A program made the translations under genes and the position numbers. A stretch of DNA of 64,000 nucleotides from IMG/VR virus record IMGVR_UViG_3300031857_000007, one strand, 5' to 3'. How positions within the stretch are numbered: position 1 is the stretch's first letter; each line of letters starts with the position of its first letter. The DNA comes from a virus (lineage: Duplodnaviria > Caudoviricetes). The notes beneath the pieces were generated by a model. That model saw only the letters and a program-made list of their open reading frames with translations. It was not told where the DNA came from and searched no databases. Positions 44,560-60,600 of the stretch are shown in pieces.

Positions 44560-44612
44560 ATTGTAGCACGAAACGGGGTCACCCCCGCCCTGCGTGTGCC
44601 TCAGAGTACTGG
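44560..44612 (-). promoter_or_regulatory. Early promoter cassette (extended -10 TG-C-TACAAT)
   Basis: attgta at 44560-44565; partial dyad motif upstream. Confidence 0.55.
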
Positions 44613-44749
44613 GCGGCGATGACGGTAGCGGGCACTCCCCAGTGAACGTAGGAGGAAGGGCGGGAACCGTTCTTCAGTTGATCGGCGCGGGAGATCCATT
44701 TGATCTGGCGGGTCTGGAGGTCAGAGCACATGGCGAGAGGGAAGCGCAT
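44579..44749 (-). CDS. Early hypothetical protein (56 aa; not in the track)
   Basis: MRFPLAMCSDLQTRQIKWISRADQLKNGSRPSSYVHWGVPATVIAAQYSEAHAGRG, directly after a promoter. Confidence 0.6.
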   Translation of the reverse strand: MRFPLAMCSDLQTRQIKWISRADQLKNGSRPSSYVHWGVPATVIAAQYSEAHAGRG

Positions 44750-44773
44750 TGGTCGTCTGTCGGTTGCTTGAGA

Positions 44774-44803
44774 ATTCTACAGGGTCAGGGGGGCAGGGGT
44801 CAA
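44774..44803 (-). promoter_or_regulatory. Early sigma70-like promoter TTGACC-18-TAGAAT
   Basis: Read directly; shares CTGACCCTGTAGAATT with the promoter at 45008. Confidence 0.6.
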
Positions 44804-44982
44804 TACCCCAACCACACCAGGAACTCACCAGCGTCAACCCCGCCGAAGTCAGAGGTCGTGCCATAGTCGGTGCGGAAGTCATCCCACAGACCGTGCTGTT
44901 TGGCAGCGTGTGCCGCTTCGATCCAATAGATGGTGCCATTCTCAGGGTTGGTGATTTCAGCGATCAGGTCGGGGAAGGTCAT
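44800..44982 (-). CDS. Early hypothetical protein (60 aa)
   Basis: Follows the promoter at 45008; ends VDAGEFLVWLGY. Confidence 0.7.
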   Translation of the reverse strand: MTFPDLIAEITNPENGTIYWIEAAHAAKQHGLWDDFRTDYGTTSDFGGVDAGEFLVWLGY

Positions 44983-45007
44983 CGGTTGCCTTGCGGTTGA
45001 CTCTGTA

Positions 45008-45064
45008 ATTCTACAGGGTCAGGAGCGCGATCCACAGGCGGCGGGGGACACTTGGCAAATTGTC
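45008..45064 (-). promoter_or_regulatory. Early promoter cassette (-10 TAGAAT plus dyad motif)
   Basis: GACAATTTGCCAAGTGTCCCC upstream; CTGACCCTGTAGAAT. Confidence 0.6.
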
Positions 45065-45174
45065 TCTGCCTGCTTCTCTTGATATGAATTAATTGTGGCA
45101 GTGGCAGACTGTACAAAAGTGGAGGCAATTGCAATGCAGAAGATTGCAAACATTGAAGGGAGAATTGCTCGCAT
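45019..45174 (-). CDS. Small membrane or secreted protein (51 aa; not in the track)
   Basis: MRAILPSMFAIFCIAIASTFVQSATATINSYQEKQAETICQVSPAACGSRS; hydrophobic N-terminus. Confidence 0.55.
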   Translation of the reverse strand: MRAILPSMFAIFCIAIASTFVQSATATINSYQEKQAETICQVSPAACGSRS

Positions 45175-45198
45175 TGTACTTATAAAATTAATGTCAGA

Positions 45199-45366
45199 TC
45201 AGAATTGAATCGCGGTCAAAGTAGGGGCACTGATTGAAGCATAATGTGCGGCACAATCGTTGATGTTCTCCTGTTCAATGTCGCTGGTGATAGTTTCCAG
45301 AATCTGGAGAATGTCGGATCCGTTGTTACCTTGACGCAGAAGGGAAAGAGCCAGTTCGCGGGACAT
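45199..45366 (-). CDS. Early hypothetical protein (55 aa, MSRELAL start)
   Basis: 3' part of the track ORF 45199-45627; the upstream part of that ORF overlaps a real gene and is unlikely to be coding. Confidence 0.65.
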   Translation of the reverse strand: MSRELALSLLRQGNNGSDILQILETITSDIEQENINDCAAHYASISAPTLTAIQF

Positions 45367-45430
45367 TTGATCAAAAAAAGTTAATGTTTGGCGGAGTCTT
45401 TTTTGGGCGCTGCCATTCCCATTGTTCAGG

Positions 45431-45676
45431 TTAGAATGCCACCAATTGATCCAGATCCCATTGTGGCACAACCTGAACCTCAGCATAGGTGCTGGCGTTC
45501 TCTGCCAGCCAAGAATTGATGTGGCGGGTGGTGGTGGCGCTCCACTTGTGCTCTGTCCGCATCCAACCCTTACCAGGCACCAGAGCGGCGACAGGGGTGG
45601 AATAGGAGAACAGAACCTCAGTGCCATCCGCGAGGGAGACTTGAGTTTTGTTGCTGCCGATGGCGGAGACTTTCAT
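45431..45676 (-). CDS. Early hypothetical protein (81 aa)
   Basis: VLFSYSTPVAA..WSATTTRHINSWL, a motif common in phage early proteins; has its own promoter at 45700. Confidence 0.75.
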   Translation of the reverse strand: MKVSAIGSNKTQVSLADGTEVLFSYSTPVAALVPGKGWMRTEHKWSATTTRHINSWLAENASTYAEVQVVPQWDLDQLVAF

Positions 45677-45699
45677 GGCGGGTTGCCTGAACTGAGATC

Positions 45700-45758
45700 A
45701 GTATAAAGGGTCAGGGTGGGGGATCGGTGTCCCCCTTGTGCCAGTGCCTCAGTCGGCA
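45700..45758 (-). promoter_or_regulatory. Early promoter cassette (-10 TATACT, stem-loop, dyad motif)
   Basis: CTGACCCTTTATACTGATCTCAGTTCA is identical to the copy at 45952-45978; ACTGGCACAAGGGGG..CCCCC upstream. Confidence 0.75.
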
Positions 45759-45940
45759 TAAAGGGAGTTGAAATCCTCCACAAACTCCAGCGCCTCATCA
45801 CCCGTCATGCGGGAGATCATTTCACGGGCGATCGTTTCCCAGGAGTAGTGATCCGCCAGATCACAGATCGCCTCACGGGCATCGGAAGCGTAGCGGTGAG
45901 CGGCGGTGATCTGAGCGTAGGTCATTTCCAGGCGGGACAT
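45749..45940 (-). CDS. Early acidic hypothetical protein (63 aa)
   Basis: Follows the promoter at 45964. Confidence 0.7.
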   Translation of the reverse strand: MSRLEMTYAQITAAHRYASDAREAICDLADHYSWETIAREMISRMTGDEALEFVEDFNSLYAD

Positions 45941-45963
45941 GGTAGATCGGTTGAACTGAGATC

Positions 45964-46022
45964 AGTATAAAGGGTCAGCGGTGCCCCCATATGGGTCTGG
46001 TGGACAGTGCCTCAGTTGGCAC
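45964..46022 (-). promoter_or_regulatory. Early promoter cassette (-10 TATACT plus dyad motif)
   Basis: GTGCCAACTGAGGCACTGTCCAC upstream of CTGACCCTTTATACT. Confidence 0.75.
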
Positions 46023-46908
46023 ACTGGAAACGTCCGCTGTTGAAATTATGATAGGAGAACACCTCACGATTCACGAGTTTGAACATACCAAACTCATTGG
46101 TCATTACATAACCCTCAGCGTCAATACGATTGCCGTTCACATAAGCAGCAGGACCATAATTGCGACACAAGTATACACAATCATCTTTGATAGACTTAAC
46201 CAATGCCCACAAGCGAATCAGGTTAGGATCACAATCAAAGTCCTCAGCAGCAACCTGTTCGCCAGCACGAATGCAGGCGTTGATTTGTTGTTTGATCTTT
46301 GCTGCTTCCTTATCAGAAACAAACTCACAAGCGGTAGACATTTGGCGGGCAAAGTCCACAACTTCTTTCACATCAGCAAACGATTCTTGATTGTAAAGAA
46401 TGTATGCTTCAGGTTTCACAAACTTAACAGTTTCAGTATCATTCCAGATCGCACGGTCAGGCATTGCAACTGCTTCGCGCAGATCATTCTCTGCAAAGTA
46501 GCAAGTGTGAGGGGCAATGATAATCTGCTGAGAAACTACCTCAGAAAACTTGTAAGTAATCGTGTTGGGAGTATACTCATCGCTACCGCCAAAACCAATA
46601 AAATCACCTTGGTAGACAGTATTGGTGCGAGGAAGATAATCAAAGCAAGCATGAAGAATAGACGCAACCTCACCTTGATAGTGTTGATCAATTTCTTCAT
46701 GAGAGTGAGCAATGCGAATCTTTTTCTTGTTAAAGACTGCTTTCGTTCCTACAAAGAACTCACCGTTTGCAGGATCAATTCCCCACACAATTGCGGGAGC
46801 ACCATCAATCTTAACGCTCAAAGTGCCAGGGGCAATGAACCAATCAAGACACGAAAGATCACCAGTGAGAATGGTATCTTCGGGGTGTTCGAGGTGTGTG
46901 TTTTTCAT
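46012..46908 (-). CDS. DUF6267-like protein with covalent nucleotidyltransferase (ligase-like) motifs (298 aa)
   Basis: HLEHPED N-terminus; VKIDGAP (KxDG), FVGTK, YQGDF, EGYVM, FKLVNR. Confidence 0.75.
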   Translation of the reverse strand: MKNTHLEHPEDTILTGDLSCLDWFIAPGTLSVKIDGAPAIVWGIDPANGEFFVGTKAVFNKKKIRIAHSHEEIDQHYQGEVASILHACFDYLPRTNTVYQGDFIGFGGSDEYTPNTITYKFSEVVSQQIIIAPHTCYFAENDLREAVAMPDRAIWNDTETVKFVKPEAYILYNQESFADVKEVVDFARQMSTACEFVSDKEAAKIKQQINACIRAGEQVAAEDFDCDPNLIRLWALVKSIKDDCVYLCRNYGPAAYVNGNRIDAEGYVMTNEFGMFKLVNREVFSYHNFNSGRFQCAN

Positions 46909-46914
46909 GCTCTT

Positions 46915-46972
46915 AGTATGGCAGAGAATTGAGCGGATCGCAAGAGGGCGTGTGCCAGTTCTCAGAGTGCCC
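46915..46972 (-). promoter_or_regulatory. Early promoter TTGCGA-17-CATACT plus dyad motif
   Basis: GGGCACTCTGAGAACTGGCACAC upstream; -10 ends 7 nt before the ATG, implying a near-leaderless mRNA. Confidence 0.7.
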
Positions 46973-47288
46973 CATTCTCATCAAGAATTCCCCACTGAAT
47001 GGTTCCCTGATACATGCCAATGTAACGGTTTCCAATACTCAAACCAACGATTTCATCTTCACTATCACCAATCAGATTGACACTGAAATAGAAATAGTTG
47101 CTGATAGAATCGGGGGTGCGGAATTTCATAACCTGAATTTTCTCCCAAAGAATAGTAGCAATTGCAGCAACGAATGCTGCGGCAGTGATTACAAAACTCT
47201 TCATATCTTGATAGAGTTTCTGATAATCAACCTCCTGCAGTTTCACGAACAGATCATCAGCAGGCGGGAAAGATTTGGTCAGTTCCAT
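46962..47288 (-). CDS. Early protein with one transmembrane segment (108 aa)
   Basis: FVITAAAFVAAIATILW hydrophobic helix. Confidence 0.65.
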   Translation of the reverse strand: MELTKSFPPADDLFVKLQEVDYQKLYQDMKSFVITAAAFVAAIATILWEKIQVMKFRTPDSISNYFYFSVNLIGDSEDEIVGLSIGNRYIGMYQGTIQWGILDENGAL

Positions 47289-47309
47289 TGTGAAGAAAAG
47301 GTGAAAGAA

Positions 47310-47483
47310 TCAGTTCAGGAAGGTTGCGGGATTGCCATAATCGGCAATGTGATGACCATTCAAACGAATCTCAGCGTAACCGAATTCCTCTGCCAAATCA
47401 TAACAGAGATCGTATGCCTGACCCTCATCACTCACAGACTGCGACTCATAAGGGGCAGAGGGGACGATAACTTCGTAACGCAT
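47310..47483 (-). CDS. Early hypothetical protein (57 aa; not in the track)
   Basis: MRYEVIVPSAPYESQSVSDEGQAYDLCYDLAEEFGYAEIRLNGHHIADYGNPATFLN, directly after the promoter at 47506. Confidence 0.65.
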   Translation of the reverse strand: MRYEVIVPSAPYESQSVSDEGQAYDLCYDLAEEFGYAEIRLNGHHIADYGNPATFLN

Positions 47484-47505
47484 GAGGTTTGTTTGAACTG
47501 AAGTC

Positions 47506-47564
47506 AGTATAGGGGGTCAGCGGTGCCCTTGTGGGGTTTTGGTGGACAGTTCAGGGATTGGACC
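47506..47564 (-). promoter_or_regulatory. Early promoter cassette (-10 TATACT plus dyad motif)
   Basis: GGGCACCGCTGACCC shared with the 45964 cassette; ACTGTCCACCA upstream. Confidence 0.72.
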
Positions 47565-47585
47565 GCCGCGGCCACTCAGTTTGTG

Positions 47586-47762
47586 TCACTTAACCACGAT
47601 ACGGTTCAATTCTTCAAGTGTGCTCACATTCCAGTTGGCAATGTCACCATGGGGAGCATACAGTTTGCTATACCATTCCCCATACAATTCAGGATTAATG
47701 AGTTGCACCTTCTCTAGAGTTTCTGCAATCTCAACATTCAAATTGTGTTGGAAATTAGTCAT
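47586..47762 (-). CDS. Early hypothetical protein (58 aa; not in the track)
   Basis: MTNFQHNLNVEIAETLEKVQLINPELYGEWYSKLYAPHGDIANWNVSTLEELNRIVVK; TGATG coupling with the upstream ORF. Confidence 0.6.
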   Translation of the reverse strand: MTNFQHNLNVEIAETLEKVQLINPELYGEWYSKLYAPHGDIANWNVSTLEELNRIVVK

Positions 47763-47953
47763 CAACCCTCCAGCAGTTCGGGGTAGTATTCTTCACACTC
47801 GGTGATCAATTCTTCATCAGAATACTTAGCATAACCCTCATCCAGATAATCATAACAAAGCTGCGTCATTGTCTTGAGATCCATGTCATCCAACATCTGC
47901 TGAATGAGTTGATCTTGGAGTTCAGAACGGTTCATGTTAGTGTCAGTTGCCAT
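47762..47953 (-). CDS. Early acidic hypothetical protein (63 aa)
   Basis: LQDQLIQQMLDDMDLKTM..YSDEELITECEEYYPELLEG. Confidence 0.7.
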   Translation of the reverse strand: MATDTNMNRSELQDQLIQQMLDDMDLKTMTQLCYDYLDEGYAKYSDEELITECEEYYPELLEG

Positions 47954-48056
47954 TGATGATGTTCCAGAATTGTTTAGAGTTTGCCCCAGGAATGTGGGGA
48001 AGTTTCTTCTCCCAGTATCCTGTGATGTGACGATACCAAACTTTCAGGATGTTCAT
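47943..48056 (-). CDS. Possible 37-aa ORF
   Basis: MNILKVWYRHITGYWEKKLPHIPGANSKQFWNIINGN; fills the gap between coupled ORFs. Confidence 0.5.
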   Translation of the reverse strand: MNILKVWYRHITGYWEKKLPHIPGANSKQFWNIINGN

Positions 48057-48059
48057 GAT

Positions 48060-48185
48060 TCAGTAATCGTATTCGCCGTTAATGTAATCCGTGAGGTTAA
48101 AATCTTCTTCTTTCAGTTCAGGAATGTCCAGATCGAAGATCTCACCAGGCATGTCTTGAATCTCTTGCCACATTTCATCAAACAT
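48060..48185 (-). CDS. 41-aa very acidic early peptide (not in the track)
   Basis: MFDEMWQEIQDMPGEIFDLDIPELKEEDFNLTDYINGEYDY; GAGGGAG RBS; promoter at 48211. Confidence 0.65.
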   Translation of the reverse strand: MFDEMWQEIQDMPGEIFDLDIPELKEEDFNLTDYINGEYDY

Positions 48186-48210
48186 TGGTGTCTCCCTCAG
48201 GAACAAACGT

Positions 48211-48305
48211 AGTATGGCACCGATCAGGGCACGAATCAACCGATGGTGGACAGTACGGGAACTGGCTCACGAACCCTCTGGCTGCCGCCCAGGAGGCGCT
48301 AGAAT
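48211..48305. promoter_or_regulatory. Divergent promoter pair sharing one dyad motif: minus-strand TTGATT-17-CATACT and plus-strand -10 TAGAAT (48300)
   Basis: GTGGACAGT-acggga-ACTGGCTCAC at 48246-48270 lies between the two -10 boxes. Confidence 0.55.
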
Positions 48306-48393
48306 GGGGTCACAAGCGAATGAGGGGTGAGGTAGCCCTGCGGACGACAATTATCGACACTGAAGCAGCTTTGAAATATTAATTGCAAAGTAT

Positions 48394-48420
48394 AAAAAAA
48401 GGGAGGCATTGTGCCCCCCC
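48394..48420 (-). terminator. Intrinsic terminator after the ArdA-like gene
   Basis: Minus strand GGGGGGCA-CAA-TGCCTCCC-TTTTTTT. Confidence 0.8.
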
Positions 48421-48427
48421 ATTTGAT

Positions 48428-48865
48428 TCAGTGATCGCGGAAGATATGCATCGAACGATAAGAAGTTCCATCGTTACATGCAGTGAAATCATAACGCAAC
48501 GAAGTCTCCCAAGTTGCTTCCCAATCCACTACAATTCCAGAAGGGATATCATAACCCATATCATCATAGAAAGATTCAGCAAACTCTGCCTCATCATTGA
48601 AGCAACCTTGATAACGCTCATCACAGCATTCAATATCACTCATGCAACCAACTTCGCCAATGAGAGCATCAACTGCCTCGTATCCGATTGCTTCACCACA
48701 ACGAACATACTCCTCGTAATAGTTACAGAAGTCGTCCTCATTGTAGGTATCAATGAACTCCAACATGTCATCCAGAGCGTAGTTATCTTCCAGACGCTCT
48801 TCAATGAACTCTACAGTTTGAACATTCAGAGTTTCTTTGTAGTTAGCGGTCAGGGTGATCGACAT
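48428..48865 (-). CDS. ArdA-like acidic antirestriction (DNA-mimic) protein (145 aa)
   Basis: ERYQGCFNDEAEFAESFYDDMGYDIPSGIVVDWEATWETSLRYDF resembles the ArdA C-terminal pattern; about 36 D/E vs 7 K/R by hand count. Confidence 0.6.
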   Translation of the reverse strand: MSITLTANYKETLNVQTVEFIEERLEDNYALDDMLEFIDTYNEDDFCNYYEEYVRCGEAIGYEAVDALIGEVGCMSDIECCDERYQGCFNDEAEFAESFYDDMGYDIPSGIVVDWEATWETSLRYDFTACNDGTSYRSMHIFRDH

Positions 48866-48980
48866 GATGAAAAGAATTAGTTTGGGTTGGGGTGCTGATC
48901 TCCCCTACAGCATGTGAAGGATCTTACCTAGGACCTTTCCGATATCGGTGGTTTCGCTAGGAGGGTTCGCTTCTGAAAGT

Positions 48981-49040
48981 AGTATGGCAGCAGTGGGGGG
49001 AGAAATCAATCCCCCTTGTGCCACTTGTCAGACCGTCACA
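48981..49040 (-). promoter_or_regulatory. Early promoter TTGATT-17-CATACT within a GGGGGA/TCCCCC stem-loop plus dyad motif
   Basis: Read directly. Confidence 0.72.
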
Positions 49041-49240
49041 CGTCCTTCCATTTCACGCAATTGATTCATGATATCAAATAGTTCCATTTCGTCCATATCA
49101 GCACTCTCCATATCTACGGGTGCAAATTCATTCAAATTCACGCTACCGTCAGAATAGATTGGAGCATAGAACAGTTCGTTACTATCTTCCTGCGACAGGG
49201 TGAATACACAACCGTAGTTGGTGGCAGTGAGAAGAATCAT
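49028..49240 (-). CDS. Early acidic hypothetical protein (70 aa)
   Basis: ELFYAPIYSDGSVNLNEF; follows the promoter at 49262. Confidence 0.7.
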   Translation of the reverse strand: MILLTATNYGCVFTLSQEDSNELFYAPIYSDGSVNLNEFAPVDMESADMDEMELFDIMNQLREMEGRVTV

Positions 49241-49261
49241 GGGGCAATCCCTGACGACTTG

Positions 49262-49358
49262 AGTATCATTGCACCCAGCTGCCCCCTGTGGGCGATTTAG
49301 TGGACACTTGAACTAGTGGCACAATGATACTTGATATTGGCAATCGGTGCGCTATGAT
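49262..49358. promoter_or_regulatory. Divergent promoter pair around the dyad GTGGACACT-tgaact-AGTGGCAC: minus-strand -10 GATACT; plus-strand TTGATA-16-TATGAT
   Basis: Read directly; no plus-strand ORF follows. Confidence 0.5.
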
Positions 49359-49450: not shown

Positions 49451-49612
49451 TTACCAAATACGGTCTAGACTCAGATCTTCAATATATGCCTTCACACGCT
49501 CATCGCCACCCAATTCAAACAGTTTTTCCCAATCAATATCGCGTGGGTTAAAGTCTTGAAACACGTCTAGTTCTAGAGTAATACGATACTTGTTTTTCTG
49601 TGCGTAAACCAT
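49451..49612 (-). CDS. Hypothetical protein (53 aa; not in the track)
   Basis: MVYAQKNKYRITLELDVFQDFNPRDIDWEKLFELGGDERVKAYIEDLSLDRIW. Confidence 0.65.
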   Translation of the reverse strand: MVYAQKNKYRITLELDVFQDFNPRDIDWEKLFELGGDERVKAYIEDLSLDRIW

Positions 49613-49638
49613 AGGATCTAGGTGAAGTAACTATGTAC

Positions 49639-49667
49639 ATGTTACATGAATCTAGAAGGAATGTCAA
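49639..49667 (-). promoter_or_regulatory. sigma70-like promoter TTGACA-17-TAACAT
   Basis: Extended TG; one GAATCTAG array copy lies inside its spacer. Confidence 0.65.
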
Positions 49668-49903
49668 GTGCATGGTGTATATATGAATCTCGATATGAAT
49701 CTAGTTGTATATGTGTGAATCTCGATATGTTGATATAATGATATGAATCTAGTTGTATAATGCGAATCTAGATGGGCAATCTAGTTGTATGATGCGAATC
49801 TAGTTGAGTCTAGTTGTGAATCTAGTTGTGAATCTCGAAGGATATATGCGAATCTAGTTGTATAATGATATAACGTTATTGTTATATGATATCATGAATC
49901 TAG
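49648..49903 (+). repeat. Non-coding array of 13 same-orientation GAATCT(A/C)G motifs (11 exact, 2 variants)
   Basis: Copies at 49648, 49685, 49697, 49717, 49745, 49764, 49777 (variant), 49796, 49806 (variant), 49818, 49830, 49850, 49896; often followed by TTGTAT. Confidence 0.92.
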
Positions 49904-49946
49904 TTTTATATGTGCCCGCCTCCGTGTATTTTTGTTTCGGGGGCGC

Positions 49947-49975
49947 TTGACATTTTTTCGGAGTTGTGATACAAT
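49947..49975 (+). promoter_or_regulatory. Plus-strand sigma70 promoter TTGACA-17-TACAAT with no downstream ORF
   Basis: Near-consensus boxes with an exact 17-bp spacer. Confidence 0.7.
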
Positions 49976-50002
49976 GCACGCTAAGATCACAAGACTCTGA
50001 GG

Positions 50003-50047
50003 CATTTATAAGACATTTATAAGGCATTAATAAGTTTATAAGACATT
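50003..50047 (+). repeat. Four near-tandem CATT(T/A)ATAAG-like repeats, about 11-bp period, followed by a very AT-rich tract to 50170
   Basis: catttataag at 50003 and 50014, cattaataag at 50025, tttataag at 50035. Confidence 0.75.
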
Positions 50048-50172
50048 AAAGAACTCAGAGACTCTCTAACAATATAACGATAACATTATAAGAGATAAAT
50101 CACACAAACATATTTAAAAATACATTTATTAATTAATTTAATTGTTTTTTACCATAAAATAAGCATTTTTAG

Positions 50173-50655
50173 TCATAATTGTTCAATAGTATATTCTTTC
50201 CATTCTTTAATCTTACAATCATTCAATAGGAATTGCATCTTATTATAAGGTGCTCTTGGTTTGCGAATTAACCTCATATTGGTTTGTTCTAATAGAGTAT
50301 TACCTTTCTTTGTATTACAAGAACTACATGCTACTACAAGATTTTCCCATGTATCTTCTCCACCTCTACATTTAGGAATAACATGATCAATTGTCAATCG
50401 TTGTGTAGATTCGCAATATTGACAAGTATGATTATCTCTCTTGTAGATCATTGATCTTGATGGTTTGTTCATAACAATCTTAGAAAATGGTACTTTCACA
50501 TAACTTAAAAGGCGTATGACTCTATTCGATAATATCTGTGCCTTTTCTTTTAAGAGAAGAACTATTGCTCTTTTCCAACTGGTTATGTTTAATGGTTCAT
50601 AGGAAGAGTTTAATACCAAGATACTGGTATTTGGTTGTATCGTTATACCATTCAT
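50173..50655 (-). CDS. HNH endonuclease (McrA/HNH_5 bacterial type, 160 aa)
   Basis: ILVLNSSYEPL; YKRDNHTCQYC..LTIDHVIPKCRGGEDTWENLVVACSSCNTKKGN. Confidence 0.93.
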   Translation of the reverse strand: MNGITIQPNTSILVLNSSYEPLNITSWKRAIVLLLKEKAQILSNRVIRLLSYVKVPFSKIVMNKPSRSMIYKRDNHTCQYCESTQRLTIDHVIPKCRGGEDTWENLVVACSSCNTKKGNTLLEQTNMRLIRKPRAPYNKMQFLLNDCKIKEWKEYTIEQL

Positions 50656-56081: not shown

Positions 56082-56138
56082 ATTATAAGGCAAAAGGAGC
56101 ACCTGTGGGATGCTCCTGTGCCAGTTCTTCAAGTGTCC
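56082..56138 (-). promoter_or_regulatory. Early promoter cassette (-10 TATAAT, GGAGCA/TGCTCC stem-loop, dyad motif)
   Basis: GGACACTTGAAGAACTGGCACAGGAGCATCCCACAGGTGCTCCTTTTGCCTTATAAT. Confidence 0.72.
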
Positions 56139-56392
56139 TATTTCAGTTCATCTTCCTCTTTTTGAATAGCAGAGATAGCATTTAGAAACTCCAAACCATA
56201 TTTACCTACAACCCAAGCATCTTTATCCTCAAAGAACCTAGTACCGATGGTTCTCATATCATAGCCTTCTGTGCTTTTATTGAAGAAAGCAACGACATAG
56301 CAACTATCACCAGAGTCGTGAGTATACCACTTGACGAGTTCATACTTGTTGTTGACTTTACTCCAACGAAACTCTATGTTACGAAATCTCAT
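56138..56392 (-). CDS. Hypothetical protein (84 aa)
   Basis: MRFRNIEFRWSK..YELVKW; ATGA-coupled. Confidence 0.7.
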   Translation of the reverse strand: MRFRNIEFRWSKVNNKYELVKWYTHDSGDSCYVVAFFNKSTEGYDMRTIGTRFFEDKDAWVVGKYGLEFLNAISAIQKEEDELK

Positions 56393-56565
56393 TCTTCTTC
56401 CTCTTCATAAGGGAACATTTCATCATACTCTTCATCAGTGAGAGTCAGATACTGAACATCAGCATCTTTGTGCTCTTCGGCATACACTAACTGATAGTGA
56501 GCAAAACTACTTTCAGAAGTGCTAGCGTACTCTATGAGTCCATCAACAATACAAAGGTAATTCAT
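56389..56565 (-). CDS. Acidic hypothetical protein (58 aa; not in the track)
   Basis: MNYLCIVDGLIEYASTSESSFAHYQLVYAEEHKDADVQYLTLTDEEYDEMFPYEEEEE; coupled at both ends. Confidence 0.65.
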   Translation of the reverse strand: MNYLCIVDGLIEYASTSESSFAHYQLVYAEEHKDADVQYLTLTDEEYDEMFPYEEEEE

Positions 56566-56777
56566 TAGAGCACCTCCCAGTGTGCATCAGATTTGTCACC
56601 GAAACGATTAGTTCCAGTTCTTGTACTAACCCAAAAAAAGTATTTACGGTTTTCTGATGCCAAGAATAACTCACCACCAGTGTCCTGCTCTACAATACAG
56701 ACAGGATTGTTTCCCATGATATTTGCTAATCTATTCTTCGCCTTGCTGCTTTTGGGTCTTACGGTTACTCTTCTCAT
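56565..56777 (-). CDS. Hypothetical protein (70 aa)
   Basis: VTVRPKSSKAKNRLANIM; TAATG coupling. Confidence 0.7.
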   Translation of the reverse strand: MRRVTVRPKSSKAKNRLANIMGNNPVCIVEQDTGGELFLASENRKYFFWVSTRTGTNRFGDKSDAHWEVL

Positions 56778-56994
56778 TTTGGATCTCCAGTTTCAGTTTG
56801 CGAATACCAGTAATAAAGTAAGCAAAATCACGGGATTCAGTCACCCGTTTTTCTTCACCACAGACACCACATTTACCATTCCAGACAGATGAACAACCGA
56901 CTGAATAAACACCATAAGTTTGACCACAATCCATACAAGTGGTGCCTGCCTGCTCAAGTCGTTTGAGTAGTGCCTTCTTCTCTTTGAGAGTCAT
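56731..56994 (-). CDS. Zn-ribbon protein (87 aa, MTLKE start)
   Basis: CMDCG..CGVCG; the promoter at 57016 supports the later start. Confidence 0.7.
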   Translation of the reverse strand: MTLKEKKALLKRLEQAGTTCMDCGQTYGVYSVGCSSVWNGKCGVCGEEKRVTESRDFAYFITGIRKLKLEIQNEKSNRKTQKQQGEE

Positions 56995-57015
56995 AGGGGC
57001 GTTTCGTATAATGGT

Positions 57016-57072
57016 ATTATAGGGCATCAGGAGGCGTCTTCAACGTCCTCTGTGCCAGTTTCCAAAGTGTCC
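57016..57072 (-). promoter_or_regulatory. Early promoter cassette (TTGAAG-16-TATAAT plus dyad motif)
   Basis: GGACACTTTGGAAACTGGCACAG upstream, overlapping the 3' end of the upstream ORF. Confidence 0.65.
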
Positions 57073-57398
57073 TCATCGCCAGTAAGGTCTTTAAGTCTAT
57101 TCATAAAGTCTTCATCAAGTGGATAGACCTTTTCTTCACCACGATCAATCCTATCACACATCTCCATCAGATATTCTAGAAACTCTTTGGGATATGTTTC
57201 ATCCATATTAATGCTGCACCAGAACCACTGATAACATTCTTCATATGGATCGTCGTTTTTCAGCAGAGCATAATCAGCATAGTTTCCACTGATGAGATCT
57301 CTCCACATCTTAAAGTTGTTCCAGATCTCTCTCCAACCAGTCTGGAAACAATGTCCGAAGTAATACTCAAACCAGTTCAGTTTTTTCTTCATCAACAC
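57027..57398 (-). CDS. Aromatic/acidic hypothetical protein (123 aa)
   Basis: LNWFEYYFGHCFQTGWREIWNNF; coupled ORF. Confidence 0.7.
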   Translation of the reverse strand: MLMKKKLNWFEYYFGHCFQTGWREIWNNFKMWRDLISGNYADYALLKNDDPYEECYQWFWCSINMDETYPKEFLEYLMEMCDRIDRGEEKVYPLDEDFMNRLKDLTGDEDTLETGTEDVEDAS

Positions 57399-57679
57399 TC
57401 ATCCATTCCAAGATAATCAGTCTCTTTTTCATCCACTTCCTCTAAATGGTCCCATCTCCAAGTGCGGGAAAGCAAATCAATATCAAACCCAAACTTATAT
57501 GCCCAGAAGAGAATACCTAAAAGACCATTACTTCCCATTGTAATCTGAAGATAAGGTGAAGAAGGATAATCATTCCAACTTACAGAAAACTGAAACAAAC
57601 TCCATCGTTTAATATTAACAACTTGAACATAAACTTCGTGTCCAAAGTCATAGCGATGCTTAAATTTAATTAGATTCAT
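57392..57679 (-). CDS. Hypothetical beta-rich protein (95 aa)
   Basis: WSLFQFSVSWNDYPSSPYLQI; ATGA overlap. Confidence 0.7.
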   Translation of the reverse strand: MNLIKFKHRYDFGHEVYVQVVNIKRWSLFQFSVSWNDYPSSPYLQITMGSNGLLGILFWAYKFGFDIDLLSRTWRWDHLEEVDEKETDYLGMDEC

Positions 57680-57849
57680 TGCTCTTTAATAACACAAGAT
57701 GTAGTGCATTTAAGGTCACCAGAAGATCCAGAGACCGTAGATGTATGGTGTGGTGTTTTTTCTGGTGTCAGATTATATGATACAATAGCGGACACAAAAA
57801 ACGCAAGTGCAGGGATTGCGACATATTGTAGATAAGTTTTACTGCTCAT
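57676..57849 (-). CDS. Single-pass membrane protein (57 aa, MSSKT start), paralogue of 52501-52668
   Basis: TM helix followed by HTSTVSGSSGDLKCTTSCVIK. Confidence 0.7.
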   Translation of the reverse strand: MSSKTYLQYVAIPALAFFVSAIVSYNLTPEKTPHHTSTVSGSSGDLKCTTSCVIKEQ

Positions 57850-58024
57850 TATTGTTTTCCTCAAAGTCAAACCATTCATACAGAGAGTTCATCGCACCAT
57901 CAACCACACAATCAACCACAGCATCTTCGTGTGGGTTCTCTACGTGTTTATGGGCACGATTGTATCCATAACGGACACCTTCTTCCAGTGCCATCTCCAA
58001 TACCTTACGAAAGTTAGGTTTCAT
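57839..58024 (-). CDS. Hypothetical protein (61 aa)
   Basis: ALEEGVRYGYNRAHKHVENP..LYEWFDF. Confidence 0.7.
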   Translation of the reverse strand: MKPNFRKVLEMALEEGVRYGYNRAHKHVENPHEDAVVDCVVDGAMNSLYEWFDFEENNNEQ

Positions 58025-58025
58025 A

Positions 58026-58229
58026 TCAATAAGGAAGAGATTTCAGACCATCCAGAACTTCCTGAAAGCGTTCGGCACGACTCTTGTGGTGCTCTACATT
58101 CTCCTCAAGCACACTCACAATATCGTCCAGGACAACATCCAGAGACGCATCAGTATCAAAGTATTGTTGGATTGCTTCGGCAAGATACCGCCGCCGACTC
58201 CATTCCATACTATAGGGTTTGTAGTCCAT
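58026..58229 (-). CDS. Hypothetical protein (67 aa)
   Basis: First gene after the consensus promoter at 58251. Confidence 0.7.
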   Translation of the reverse strand: MDYKPYSMEWSRRRYLAEAIQQYFDTDASLDVVLDDIVSVLEENVEHHKSRAERFQEVLDGLKSLPY

Positions 58230-58250
58230 AATCAGAGTGTATATGCGGGT

Positions 58251-58279
58251 ATTATAAAGGTTTTTTCAGATATTGTCAA
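58251..58279 (-). promoter_or_regulatory. Perfect sigma70 promoter TTGACA-17-TATAAT
   Basis: tgtcaa at 58274-58279 and attata at 58251-58256 on the + strand. Confidence 0.85.
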
Positions 58280-58593
58280 TCTCTTGTTCGCCAATCGGTT
58301 TCGTCATCATCACGTTTAAACCAATCATGCAGTTCATCTGGGTTGTCAAAACCTCTTCTACCAAATCTTTCGTGCCCTAAACCACCAATATCCATTGAGT
58401 TTAGGAAATCATCCATTTCATCCATATTGGGATTTTCCGCTTTACGTCTTGCCTGGCGGAGCATTGTTCCAGCAGAGCGATTTGCCTTTGCAAGTTTCTC
58501 TGCCCAGATCATATCTTCTAAACTTACTTCTTTATGAAGTACAATCTTCTCACAGATTGCTTCCAGTCTCAATCTGTACTGCGTAGAGAGCAT
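58276..58593 (-). CDS. Hypothetical protein A' (105 aa), paralogue of 50669-50986
   Basis: MLSTQYRLRLEAIC..EVSLEDMIWAEKLAK shared. Confidence 0.85.
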   Translation of the reverse strand: MLSTQYRLRLEAICEKIVLHKEVSLEDMIWAEKLAKANRSAGTMLRQARRKAENPNMDEMDDFLNSMDIGGLGHERFGRRGFDNPDELHDWFKRDDDETDWRTRD

Positions 58594-58613
58594 ATGTATT
58601 ACCAGATGTAGTG

Positions 58614-58847
58614 TTATTTATTTTTATATTCGTCCATTAACTCTTTTGCGAGTTTCATAGAACGACGCCACATTAAATATTTTACCACAGGATTACGTGG
58701 ATTGTTTAACAACCACCACTTTTGTTTCTCATAGTTAGACTTTGCTAACTTAAGCACATAATAAAAGGCAGCAGCGATACTATCATCTGTTGCGATAAAG
58801 TATGCCGCTACTGCAAATACGATAAACCAAGCATAATAAGACATCAT
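58614..58847 (-). CDS. Membrane-anchored protein B' (77 aa), paralogue of 51007-51246
   Basis: Shared KWW..NP.NP.VKY.MWRR. Confidence 0.8.
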   Translation of the reverse strand: MMSYYAWFIVFAVAAYFIATDDSIAAAFYYVLKLAKSNYEKQKWWLLNNPRNPVVKYLMWRRSMKLAKELMDEYKNK

Positions 58848-58869
58848 CTAGGTCTCATAGTTTTATTAT

Positions 58870-59115
58870 TTAACCAAGAAATTGATCTAGACTGGAGACC
58901 GATGCGCCTTTTGCGGACTTTTGAATGTAGGTTTTGGCGGACTTGTAATTGTTTGCTAGATGAACCTGCTGTCCGTTGTGAATGATAATAAACTTTTTAC
59001 CAAATGGCACTGCTGCCCACATACCATCTTTAGTGACATAACCTTGTGGATCTGATGGTTTTGGATTTAAGATTCCTGGACGATCTACAAAAGGTTTCTG
59101 AAAGTTTTCGCTCAT
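58870..59115 (-). CDS. Conserved cyanophage hypothetical protein (81 aa)
   Basis: GYVTKDGMWAAVPFGKKFIIIHNGQQVH. Confidence 0.75.
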   Translation of the reverse strand: MSENFQKPFVDRPGILNPKPSDPQGYVTKDGMWAAVPFGKKFIIIHNGQQVHLANNYKSAKTYIQKSAKGASVSSLDQFLG

Positions 59116-59255
59116 CCGAATACAGCGGTCACACCAATAACTTTAGCACTTGGATTACGTGCTAGAGCAGTCCGCCTGGCATCATCATAATCACGTGCCT
59201 CGACAATCTCATCAAAGACTTTGCCAGCGACATAGAGTTGGACTTTGCAGCGCAT
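59112..59255 (-). CDS. Hypothetical protein (47 aa; not in the track)
   Basis: MRCKVQLYVAGKVFDEIVEARDYDDARRTALARNPSAKVIGVTAVFG; ATGA overlap. Confidence 0.7.
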   Translation of the reverse strand: MRCKVQLYVAGKVFDEIVEARDYDDARRTALARNPSAKVIGVTAVFG

Positions 59256-59294
59256 TAGAGTTTCTCCTGATGTGTAGGTAGTATAGCAGAAAAG

Positions 59295-60524
59295 TCAGCG
59301 CCTGACAATGCTGACGGCAACCTCACCTTGCTTGAAGATGATGTCCACCACATTCTGGACTGCCTTCGCAGTGCCCGTAGATGCCTTGTCAAAGACCGGG
59401 CAGACCACCAGACCATAGGATTTAGTGTAGGACGACAGGTCGCCTGCCTGAATGGCGCCAGAGCGGATTCCAGCGGCGTCTTGGGGGTGCAGACGCAGCG
59501 TCCGACCAACGGTCTGACCGATGCCCACAACGTCCATAGAGCGCAAGAACACGACCGCTTCCAGAGCAGAAATGTTGATGCCTTCTGCCAGAATGCTGTG
59601 ATGCAGGACCACAAACTTTTTGTCAGGGTCTTTGCCCCAAGCATTCAGAGTGTCAAAAAACACCTCACGATTGACCTTCTGCCCATCAATAAATGCACCG
59701 TGCTTGGCAGTAATGTGCAGCACAGAGTAACCTTGCTCGGCAATCTGGTCTGCAAAGTCAGATTCAGACAGCAGAGCAATGATGTGGCGAGTTGCCTTTG
59801 CACACACCAGAATCTTATCGACAGGATTGTCCTGAATGATTTGCATCAGATACTCACAGTCCCGTTGAGCAATATCCTCACCCTTGACGGACAGACGCAT
59901 TGGAGCAGTAATCACTTTGGGAGGAATGATATAGCCACCCTGTACCAATTCAGGAGCAGGAACTTTGGCGATGATATTACCGTAGACAGCAACATCATTC
60001 ATACCAGGTTTGGCAACGGTGGCAGAATACTTGGGAGTTGCAGTAAAGAAGTAGCAACGCTTTGCTTCAGCAGCAAAATGCTCTACAGCAGGAAAGAAGT
60101 GACGTTGAACGCTATTGTGTGCCTCATCAAAGTAAATCGTATCCACCTCAATATCTGCCTTTGCAAGTTGCTGCAGAGAATTGTAAGTGGTGAAAATCAG
60201 TTTGTGACCTTGAGTTTGCTCATACCAAGTGCGAATCGCATTGGGACGAGTGCTGCTGAAGTGATGAGTCTCACCACTGTGAATGTGCATCACAGAAGCA
60301 TTAGTGATAAACTCAAGGTATTCAGCAGACAACTGCTCTGCCAGGAGGATGCGCGGCGCCGTCACTACAATAGTCTTGGGGGTGCTAGACTGAAACACAC
60401 GAATAGCATCAAAAATGCCCACGTTGGTCTTACCACCACCGGTAGGAAACACACAGATACCTTTGAGATGCTGTGCCAGAGCATCCAGAGCAACTTGTTG
60501 GTGAGGGCGAAGTTGGTACATCAT
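59295..60524 (-). CDS. Superfamily 2 DEAH helicase (ResIII-like, 409 aa)
   Basis: YQLRPHQ (Q motif), PTGGGKT, FDEAH, FTAT, LAEGIN, QTVGRTLR. Confidence 0.93.
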   Translation of the reverse strand: MMYQLRPHQQVALDALAQHLKGICVFPTGGGKTNVGIFDAIRVFQSSTPKTIVVTAPRILLAEQLSAEYLEFITNASVMHIHSGETHHFSSTRPNAIRTWYEQTQGHKLIFTTYNSLQQLAKADIEVDTIYFDEAHNSVQRHFFPAVEHFAAEAKRCYFFTATPKYSATVAKPGMNDVAVYGNIIAKVPAPELVQGGYIIPPKVITAPMRLSVKGEDIAQRDCEYLMQIIQDNPVDKILVCAKATRHIIALLSESDFADQIAEQGYSVLHITAKHGAFIDGQKVNREVFFDTLNAWGKDPDKKFVVLHHSILAEGINISALEAVVFLRSMDVVGIGQTVGRTLRLHPQDAAGIRSGAIQAGDLSSYTKSYGLVVCPVFDKASTGTAKAVQNVVDIIFKQGEVAVSIVRR

Positions 60525-60543
60525 CTCTCAATTCAATACACAT

Positions 60544-60600
60544 ATTATAGCAGCAAAAAAGGGGTCTTGCGACCCCCCTGTGCCAGTTTGTCAAGTGTCT
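60544..60600 (-). promoter_or_regulatory. Early promoter with stem-loop (GGGGTC-GCAA-GACCCC), TCGCAA-17-TATAAT and dyad motif
   Basis: AGACACTTGACAAACTGGCACAGGGGGGTCGCAAGACCCCTTTTTTGCTGCTATAAT; may also terminate the upstream fibre transcript. Confidence 0.78.

Follow-up and report, generated by a model that had tools for sequence, protein, structure and literature searches.

The sequence analyzed here, referred to below as the window, is a stretch of 64,000 nucleotides that forms part of the genome of a T4-like cyanomyovirus. Genes for a baseplate wedge subunit, a tail sheath stabiliser, a head-closure protein, tail fibres and a DNA helicase are present, and the database entries closest to the window belong to Kyanoviridae, among them S-SM2, Bellamy, S-SCSM1 and S-SRM01. 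T4-like cyanophages are among the most abundant viruses of the ocean and, to our knowledge, do not have the MotA/AsiA middle-mode system of T4. All credible genes in the 64-kb window lie on the minus strand, and no tRNA or tmRNA was found in it. The stretch from 44 to 50 kb has a G+C content of 0.43-0.55, compared with about 0.33 in the remaining window. The tetranucleotide GGCC is strongly depleted in the window as a whole (6 observed against 40.6 expected, ratio 0.15), which suggests avoidance of a HaeIII-type restriction site. At 44560-49330 and 56090-60600 (minus strand), the sequence upstream of early genes contains a GTGCCA..TGGCACA palindrome and a G+C hairpin, and the -10 box follows about 31 nt later.

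The locus of interest is a 560-bp gene-free gap (49613-50172). On its left lies the gene for an acidic protein of 53 amino acids (P0001, phrog_12516; 49451-49612, minus strand), which is the first of a leftward early operon. Two divergent TTGACA promoters had been proposed here by an earlier, sequence-only reading, and both were recovered by a consensus scan. The left promoter (49639-49667, minus strand) is of the sigma70 type, TTGACA-17-TAACAT, and the right promoter (49947-49975, plus strand) is a near-consensus TTGACA-17-TACAAT with a TG before the -10 box. In this they are unlike the TGGCACA-palindrome early promoters, which have no TTGACA -35 box. The first copy of a GAATCT(A/C)G motif, found by pattern search at 49648-49655 (plus strand), falls inside the spacer of the left promoter, as had been claimed for one copy, and its position is operator-like. 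Twelve more co-oriented copies, which follow the extended consensus aTGnGAATCT[A/C]G[T/A]TG, are found at 49685-49903 (plus strand). A repeat search detected an AT-rich near-palindrome within the array, ATGATATAAC..GTTATATGAT (49865-49895), and AT-rich elements like it were read by eye inside the arrays of relatives. A G+C-rich hairpin (49917-49945, plus strand; fold of -13.9 kcal/mol, z -1.88) stands immediately 5' of the right promoter. The start of an ORF-less transcript occupies 49976-50050 (plus strand), with the 5' end GCACGCTAAGATCACAAGAC followed by CATTTATAAG-type repeats at 50005-50050. Further to the right there is an AT-rich tract (50111-50210), identified by a stability scan as a candidate DNA unwinding element, and a lineage-specific HNH homing-type endonuclease gene (50173-50655, minus strand) abuts the module. 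In addition, positions 49869-49887 and 50072-50090 form a 19-nt inverted repeat, 89% complementary, that brackets the right promoter and about 100 nt of its transcript; similar pairs are visible by eye at two related loci (L114 and L104).

The exact motif GAATCTMG occurs 13 times in the 64 kb by pattern search, with 11 copies on the plus strand at 49648-49903 and 2 elsewhere, while 100 shuffles gave a mean of 3.41 and a maximum of 8. The exact copies of the array start at 49648, 49685, 49697, 49717, 49745, 49764, 49796, 49818, 49830, 49850 and 49896. Two copies with one mismatch, CAATCTAG at 49777 and GAGTCTAG at 49806, bring the total to 13 in about 256 bp, and no credible ORF was found in the array stretch. 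This agrees with the earlier description of thirteen co-oriented 8-mers in some 255 bp of non-coding DNA, of which 11 are now seen to be exact. The start-to-start spacings are 37, 12, 20, 28, 19, 13, 19, 10, 12, 12, 20 and 46 bp, so that the recurrence of short steps also held, with five spacings of 10-13 bp and four of 19-20 bp. Even scattering of the motif, named in advance as a refuting outcome, was not what we found: the remaining 63.7 kb contains 2 copies, and the motif is concentrated in relatives as well. The rarity of CTAG, on the other hand, had been offered as support and has to be dropped, since its observed/expected ratio outside the array is 0.91 in this genome.

The array shows only weak helical phasing, with vector strengths of 0.53 at 10.0 bp and 0.29 at 10.5 bp. 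The regular, helically phased spacing expected of iterons was not found, either in the window, where spacings range from 10 to 46 bp, or in the arrays of relatives, which are equally irregular. Information content is highest on the 8-mer and trails weakly into (T/A)TG, and the spacers vary in length and sequence. The RNA folds of the array are not significant on either strand (z -0.58 and +0.57). A CRISPR array was ruled out, as it had been before, by repeats of 8-11 nt and irregular gaps of 2-38 nt, against the repeats of 23-50 nt and the unique spacers of even length that are required. The motif was also compared with the TGGCACA-palindrome early promoters of this phage, and the two are unrelated.

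The right promoter points against the gene direction and has no ORF downstream. Conservation of this promoter extends to S-SM2, S-SRM01 and many IMG/VR contigs, and in relatives G+C-rich tracts sit at the equivalent place 5' of it. The transcript 5' end is also conserved in relatives, and the short tandem repeats behind it are lineage-specific, those of the window being of the CATTTATAAG type. The fold of the rightward transcript is not significant (z -1.6), and no Rfam family was found in the 47-53 kb region of the window. The AT-rich tract lies 135-235 nt downstream of the right promoter and is conserved in relatives. No 100-mer in the 64 kb is less stable than positions 50111-50210, and among the 60-mers 50111-50170 ranks second in instability. 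About 200 bp separate the array from this tract, with the right promoter between them. Free-standing genes for homing-type endonucleases have a hotspot at the right border of the module: the window has its HNH gene on the minus strand, and in five related loci (L014, L017, L135, L108 and L127) a GIY-YIG or HNH gene follows the rightward promoter on the plus strand.

A search of IMG/VR with the right promoter returned S-SM2 and eleven other contigs of the same architecture, to which S-SRM01 was added by BLAST. They define a control module that is present in one copy per relative's contig and that the 53-aa gene always adjoins. From left to right it consists of this gene, the leftward promoter, a short interval, a G+C-rich tract, the rightward promoter with its conserved transcript start, lineage-specific short repeats and the AT-rich tract. 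In most contigs from the right-promoter search the distance between the promoters is just 90-130 bp or so and the array is absent. Arrays were sought as three GAATCTMG copies within short gaps in IMG/VR and then by tblastn with the 53-aa protein. ATCT[AC]G arrays of 7-21 copies were found directly 5' of the 53-aa homologue in many independent IMG/VR contigs, and the arrays that the sequence-only reading had proposed to look for at the syntenic site in relatives are thus present.

An unbiased sample of 80 loci was drawn with the 53-aa protein as sole criterion. In it, arrays of 7-21 copies are present at every locus of the clade to which the window's 53-aa protein belongs (MVYAQK N-terminus, 72-87% identity), and the other loci of the sample, about 60, have zero motif copies; because array and gene are physically linked, this co-occurrence is not independent evidence. 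From gene start to transcript start the distance measures 337-588 bp in the MVYAQK array clade versus about 175 bp in the roughly 60 array-less loci. Arrays are also found in more distant clades, where the 53-aa homologue is about 52-58% identical and the spacers are unalignable. The pooled consensus of 149 sites is aTGnGAATCT[A/C]G[T/A]TG, and the core varies by phage lineage (ATCTAG, ATCTCG or ATCTCGNCGAGAT). Among close relatives the copy number changes from 7 to 21 by whole-unit indels. In the relatives' large contigs a single array holds most sites (13 of 17 in G004, 8 of 10 in G002), and triple clusters are confined to the module locus, with the exception of two mini-arrays in G001. Array-less genomes have the motif as scattered pairs only. 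No direct GAATCTAG array was found in the cultured phages of the collection, among which S-SRM01 alone has a palindromic variant. We found no published description of the module or of the GAATCTMG motif. The array is real and very far from random; evolution has maintained it, and it is tied to an early promoter core.

The link to the promoter core could be followed across lineages. An equivalent of the leftward TTGACA promoter is present in nearly all relatives, and in 11 of 15 array lineages CTAGAT (minus strand) occupies positions 7-12 of the 17-bp spacer of TTGACA-17-TAnnnT, compared with none of 17 array-less lineages. The spacer site is flipped in L140 and L150, and ATCTCG-N-CGAGAT palindromes occur at the same place in L142, L150, S-SRM01, L014, L017, L108 and L135. 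Judged from the sequences, direct and inverted arrangements of one site correspond to protein half-site behaviour. Such a mixture is typical of recognition by a protein, and neither an RNA signal nor neutral slippage would be expected to give it. In the S-SRM01 group (L001 2223-2360; L014, L017, L135 and L108) there are two CTCGTCGAGAT copies inside a minus-strand ORF of 45-51 amino acids. The product of this ORF is very acidic, the CTCGTCGAGAT copies encode DLDE, and the stop codon overlaps the ATG of the 53-aa homologue.

The complete 215-kb contig G001 has two extra mini-arrays nearby, within 4 kb. They are made of GAATCTAGTTG (locus L219; G001:C1:114529-114618 and 115723-115802), with 6 and 4 copies. 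Each is placed between a TGGCACA-palindrome early promoter and the start codon of a small early gene, and the TAGATT of one copy lies 30-31 nt after TGGCACA, the usual place of the -10 box. On this positional evidence the places taken by the motif, namely promoter spacer, -10 box and leader, are those of repressor operators.

Candidates for a protein that might bind the array were sought in the window and in relatives. No DNA-binding Pfam or PHROG annotation was found among the neighbouring genes, and no Rep-like or initiator gene among the array neighbours in the 64-kb window or among the genes specific to array genomes. The gene-content contrast compared whole contigs of five array genomes and three array-less ones and is a weak one, the array genomes being interrelated and several contigs incomplete; the array-specific genes in it encode small proteins without known function or membrane-like proteins, with no recognisable domain. 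The 53-aa protein was considered as an RHH or HTH binder and rejected, as its AF2 model (pLDDT 74.6) is mostly coil with no DNA-binding fold, and it has no Pfam match. A DUF6267 protein of 298 amino acids looked enriched beside arrays and was also rejected as a partner, since it occurs in array-less genomes such as S-SM2. In this protein (46012-46908, minus strand; phrog_455), SVKIDGAPAIVWG resembles the KxDG motif I of ligase-type nucleotidyltransferases, but a sequence search against solved structures gave no ligase match, so that the resemblance is no more than a lead.

The explanation that we favour, with moderate confidence, is that the array is a multi-site operator or iteron cassette for a putative DNA-binding protein, probably phage-encoded, that represses the leftward early operon. 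The GAATCT[A/C]G core with [T/A]TG would provide half-sites for a sequence-specific DNA-binding protein. Because one site is inside the 17-bp spacer, protein bound there in the leftward early promoter would occlude RNA polymerase. The early operon headed by the 53-aa gene, in which there is also an ArdA-like gene, would be shut off in this way. The other twelve sites, which lie upstream, may serve as a high-avidity platform for loading, by cooperative binding or by spreading, and such a platform could also stop leftward read-through. Enrichment of the motif, conservation of the array and of the operator position, half-site behaviour and near-confinement to one locus in the relatives' contigs were all observed. 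Together with the recurrence of the array, the G001 mini-arrays, the information content that peaks on the 8-mer while spacers differ, and the lack of RNA structure, they argue for an operator, and from them we infer that a protein binds and that binding represses. Several points weigh on the other side. Neither the neighbours nor the gene-content contrast yielded a cognate repressor candidate, thirteen sites are many for a simple operator, spacing is irregular and phasing weak, and in a substitution comparison limited to three close relatives identical columns make up 85.6% in motifs versus 79.3% elsewhere.

The sequence-only reading had left a choice between a replication origin and a multi-site operator or protein sponge. 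The operator part is now directly supported by comparison, through the fixed spacer copy, the half-sites and the G001 mini-arrays; support for the origin part comes only from the context of the module, with neither an initiator gene nor a skew inflection found. The origin explanation holds that a phage-encoded initiator binds the copies and, together with the adjacent promoter and the AT-rich tract, starts replication, in iteron fashion or by R-loop priming as in T4, and that the promoter-spacer copy serves autoregulation as in iteron plasmids. We regard it as possible, though doubtful. As in iteron origins, the locus has several non-coding direct repeats of one motif with a candidate AT-rich unwinding element nearby, and a set of direct repeats plus one operator copy at a promoter makes up the classic Rep-iteron layout. 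As in oriF and oriG of T4, a promoter without ORF is followed by an AT-rich tract, here about 135 nt 3' of it; this promoter is strong, the least stable 100 bp of the window lie downstream of it, and the module is single-copy and conserved.

Sister lineages add to this picture. The sequence TTTTCCACA is the cyanobacterial DnaA-box consensus (PMC4674748). Downstream of the right promoter, lineages without the array often have a direct pair of TTTTCCACA boxes and an inverted third copy that is nearly perfect, with the AT-rich tract behind them. The 2-3 perfect boxes that sister lineages have in the module count in favour of an origin. The carriers are L002 (S-SM2), L003, L004, L188, L194, L212, L291 and G010. 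S-SM2 has 3 perfect DnaA boxes in 190.8 kb, and 2 of them are in the module at 58064 and 58085, 21 bp apart; S-SCSM1 and G010 also have DnaA-type boxes within the module. No DnaA box within one mismatch was found in the 260 bp downstream of the window's right promoter, nor downstream of this promoter at any array-bearing locus. Precedents exist in T4, where an iteron cluster stands beside an early promoter at oriE and a promoter is joined to an unwinding element at oriF and oriG, but even for oriE the role of the iterons is unproven (PMC3016281).

Other evidence speaks against origin iterons. No Rep-like or initiator gene is found nearby or among the array-specific genes, and the irregular spacing is unlike that of typical iterons. 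The right promoter stands between the array and the AT-rich tract, while the DnaA boxes of sister lineages are on the same side of the promoter as the tract, and the G001 mini-arrays occur in ordinary promoter and leader contexts. An inflection of GC skew, which had been suggested as a check, did not appear: because all genes share one strand, the cumulative skew runs monotonically through the window and through each of the eight relatives. It lends the origin no support and cannot decide the question. We found no paper that maps replication origins of T4-like cyanophages or explains their early-gene switch-off. The module looks origin-like in its sequence and an origin role for the array is plausible; the control module is the strongest candidate for the Kyanoviridae replication origin, and any link between the array and replication is something we infer from this layout.

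Operator and origin can be combined in one proposal, which we put forward only tentatively and with considerable doubt. The module would be the Kyanoviridae origin with an exchangeable docking cassette for the initiator. In some lineages the cassette would recruit host DnaA through TTTTCCACA boxes; in the window's clade GAATCTMG iterons would have taken the place of these boxes, and a phage-encoded initiator of an undescribed family would read them and also shut off the neighbouring immediate-early operon.

Two further explanations are unlikely. The array could be a decoy that titrates a host DNA-binding protein, such as a regulator or a defence factor, off its targets or off phage DNA. Many closely packed sites at one locus would suit such a sponge, and the host DnaA sites of sister modules are a precedent for docking of a host protein. 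However, a motif that varies by lineage is better explained by co-evolution with a phage protein than by a fixed host site, and the fixed promoter-spacer position points to regulation, not titration. Moreover, GAATCTMG matches no cyanobacterial regulator site known to us, which we also count against a sponge. It seems equally improbable that, within a hyperplastic intergenic hotspot, the array evolves fast in the manner of a satellite repeat or serves as a recombination substrate, kept by duplication and deletion of units and with no binding function. The whole-unit indels that change copy number from 7 to 21 between close relatives, the endonuclease hotspot at the module border and the weak substitution contrast between motifs and spacers are what such a repeat would give. 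Nevertheless, the 8-mer core persists where the neighbouring gene is 52-56% identical and the spacers are unalignable, and a fixed promoter-spacer copy and palindromic variants are unexpected from neutral slippage.

Finally, we consider very improbable a signal at the RNA level, in which repeated CUAGAUUC in a leftward leader RNA, transcribed by read-through or from a second upstream leftward promoter present in several relatives, would bind an RNA-binding factor or regulate translation: a second leftward TTGACA-17-TATAAT was indeed seen by eye upstream of the array in L083, L114, L044, L079, L139 and L104, and the G001 mini-arrays are in 5' leaders, but the window has no such second promoter, the motif is flipped or palindromic in other lineages, and there is neither an RNA structure signal nor an Rfam match.

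The locus is a practical handle open to synthesis, with a motif of 8-11 bp, a defined operator position and natural variants in which the sites are direct, palindromic, absent or replaced by DnaA boxes. These variants may be used to fish out the binder and to probe both transcriptional shut-off and the initiation of replication. If the binder belongs to a new DNA-binding or initiator family, it would open the regulation of a large group of viruses; if it does not, the array is still a clear lineage marker of a conserved control module.

The closest parallels within T4 itself are its origins. At T4 oriE a group of evenly spaced direct repeats of 12 nt adjoins an early promoter, and the role of these iterons is undefined (PMC3016281), and T4 oriF and oriG consist of a promoter and a directly downstream unwinding element (Kreuzer and Brister 2010, PMC3016281). 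The window resembles oriE in being from a T4-type phage, in having short direct repeats beside an early sigma70-type promoter, and in the presence of repeats at syntenic sites in relatives. It differs in its core of 8-11 nt and its irregular spacing, and no context like repEA/repEB was found. Like oriF and oriG, the window has an ORF-less promoter that fires toward an AT-rich, easily melted tract, although this tract begins about 135 nt 3' of the promoter.

Iteron origins form a second group for comparison. In P1, F, pSC101, RK2 and R6K, Rep monomers bind the iterons and Rep dimers bind an inverted-repeat operator, and such origins of plasmids and phage-plasmids also have DnaA boxes and an AT-rich region. 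In contrast to them, the window has no adjacent Rep gene, its spacing is irregular and there are no DnaA boxes downstream of its right promoter; furthermore, the gene under the array-overlapped promoter encodes an acidic 53-aa protein whose AF2 model has no DNA-binding fold. The direct repeats, the inverted pairs in other lineages, the promoter-overlapping copy, the AT-rich tract and the DnaA boxes of sister lineages are shared features.

A third group is that of multi-repeat operators bound by small repressors, such as the omega heptad arrays of pSM19035, ParR on the parC iterons of plasmid R1 and the stoperators of mycobacteriophage L5. In these systems the cognate protein is known and is encoded next to or near its sites, whereas no gene for such a protein was found near the array, and we know of no need for partition in a lytic T4-like phage. 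The likeness lies in the sites themselves, which are short and asymmetric, stand in direct or inverted orientation around and over promoters, and in leaders are co-oriented with transcription. The GAATCTMG cassette, with its fixed operator copy and palindromic variants, is a new form of a known type of element.
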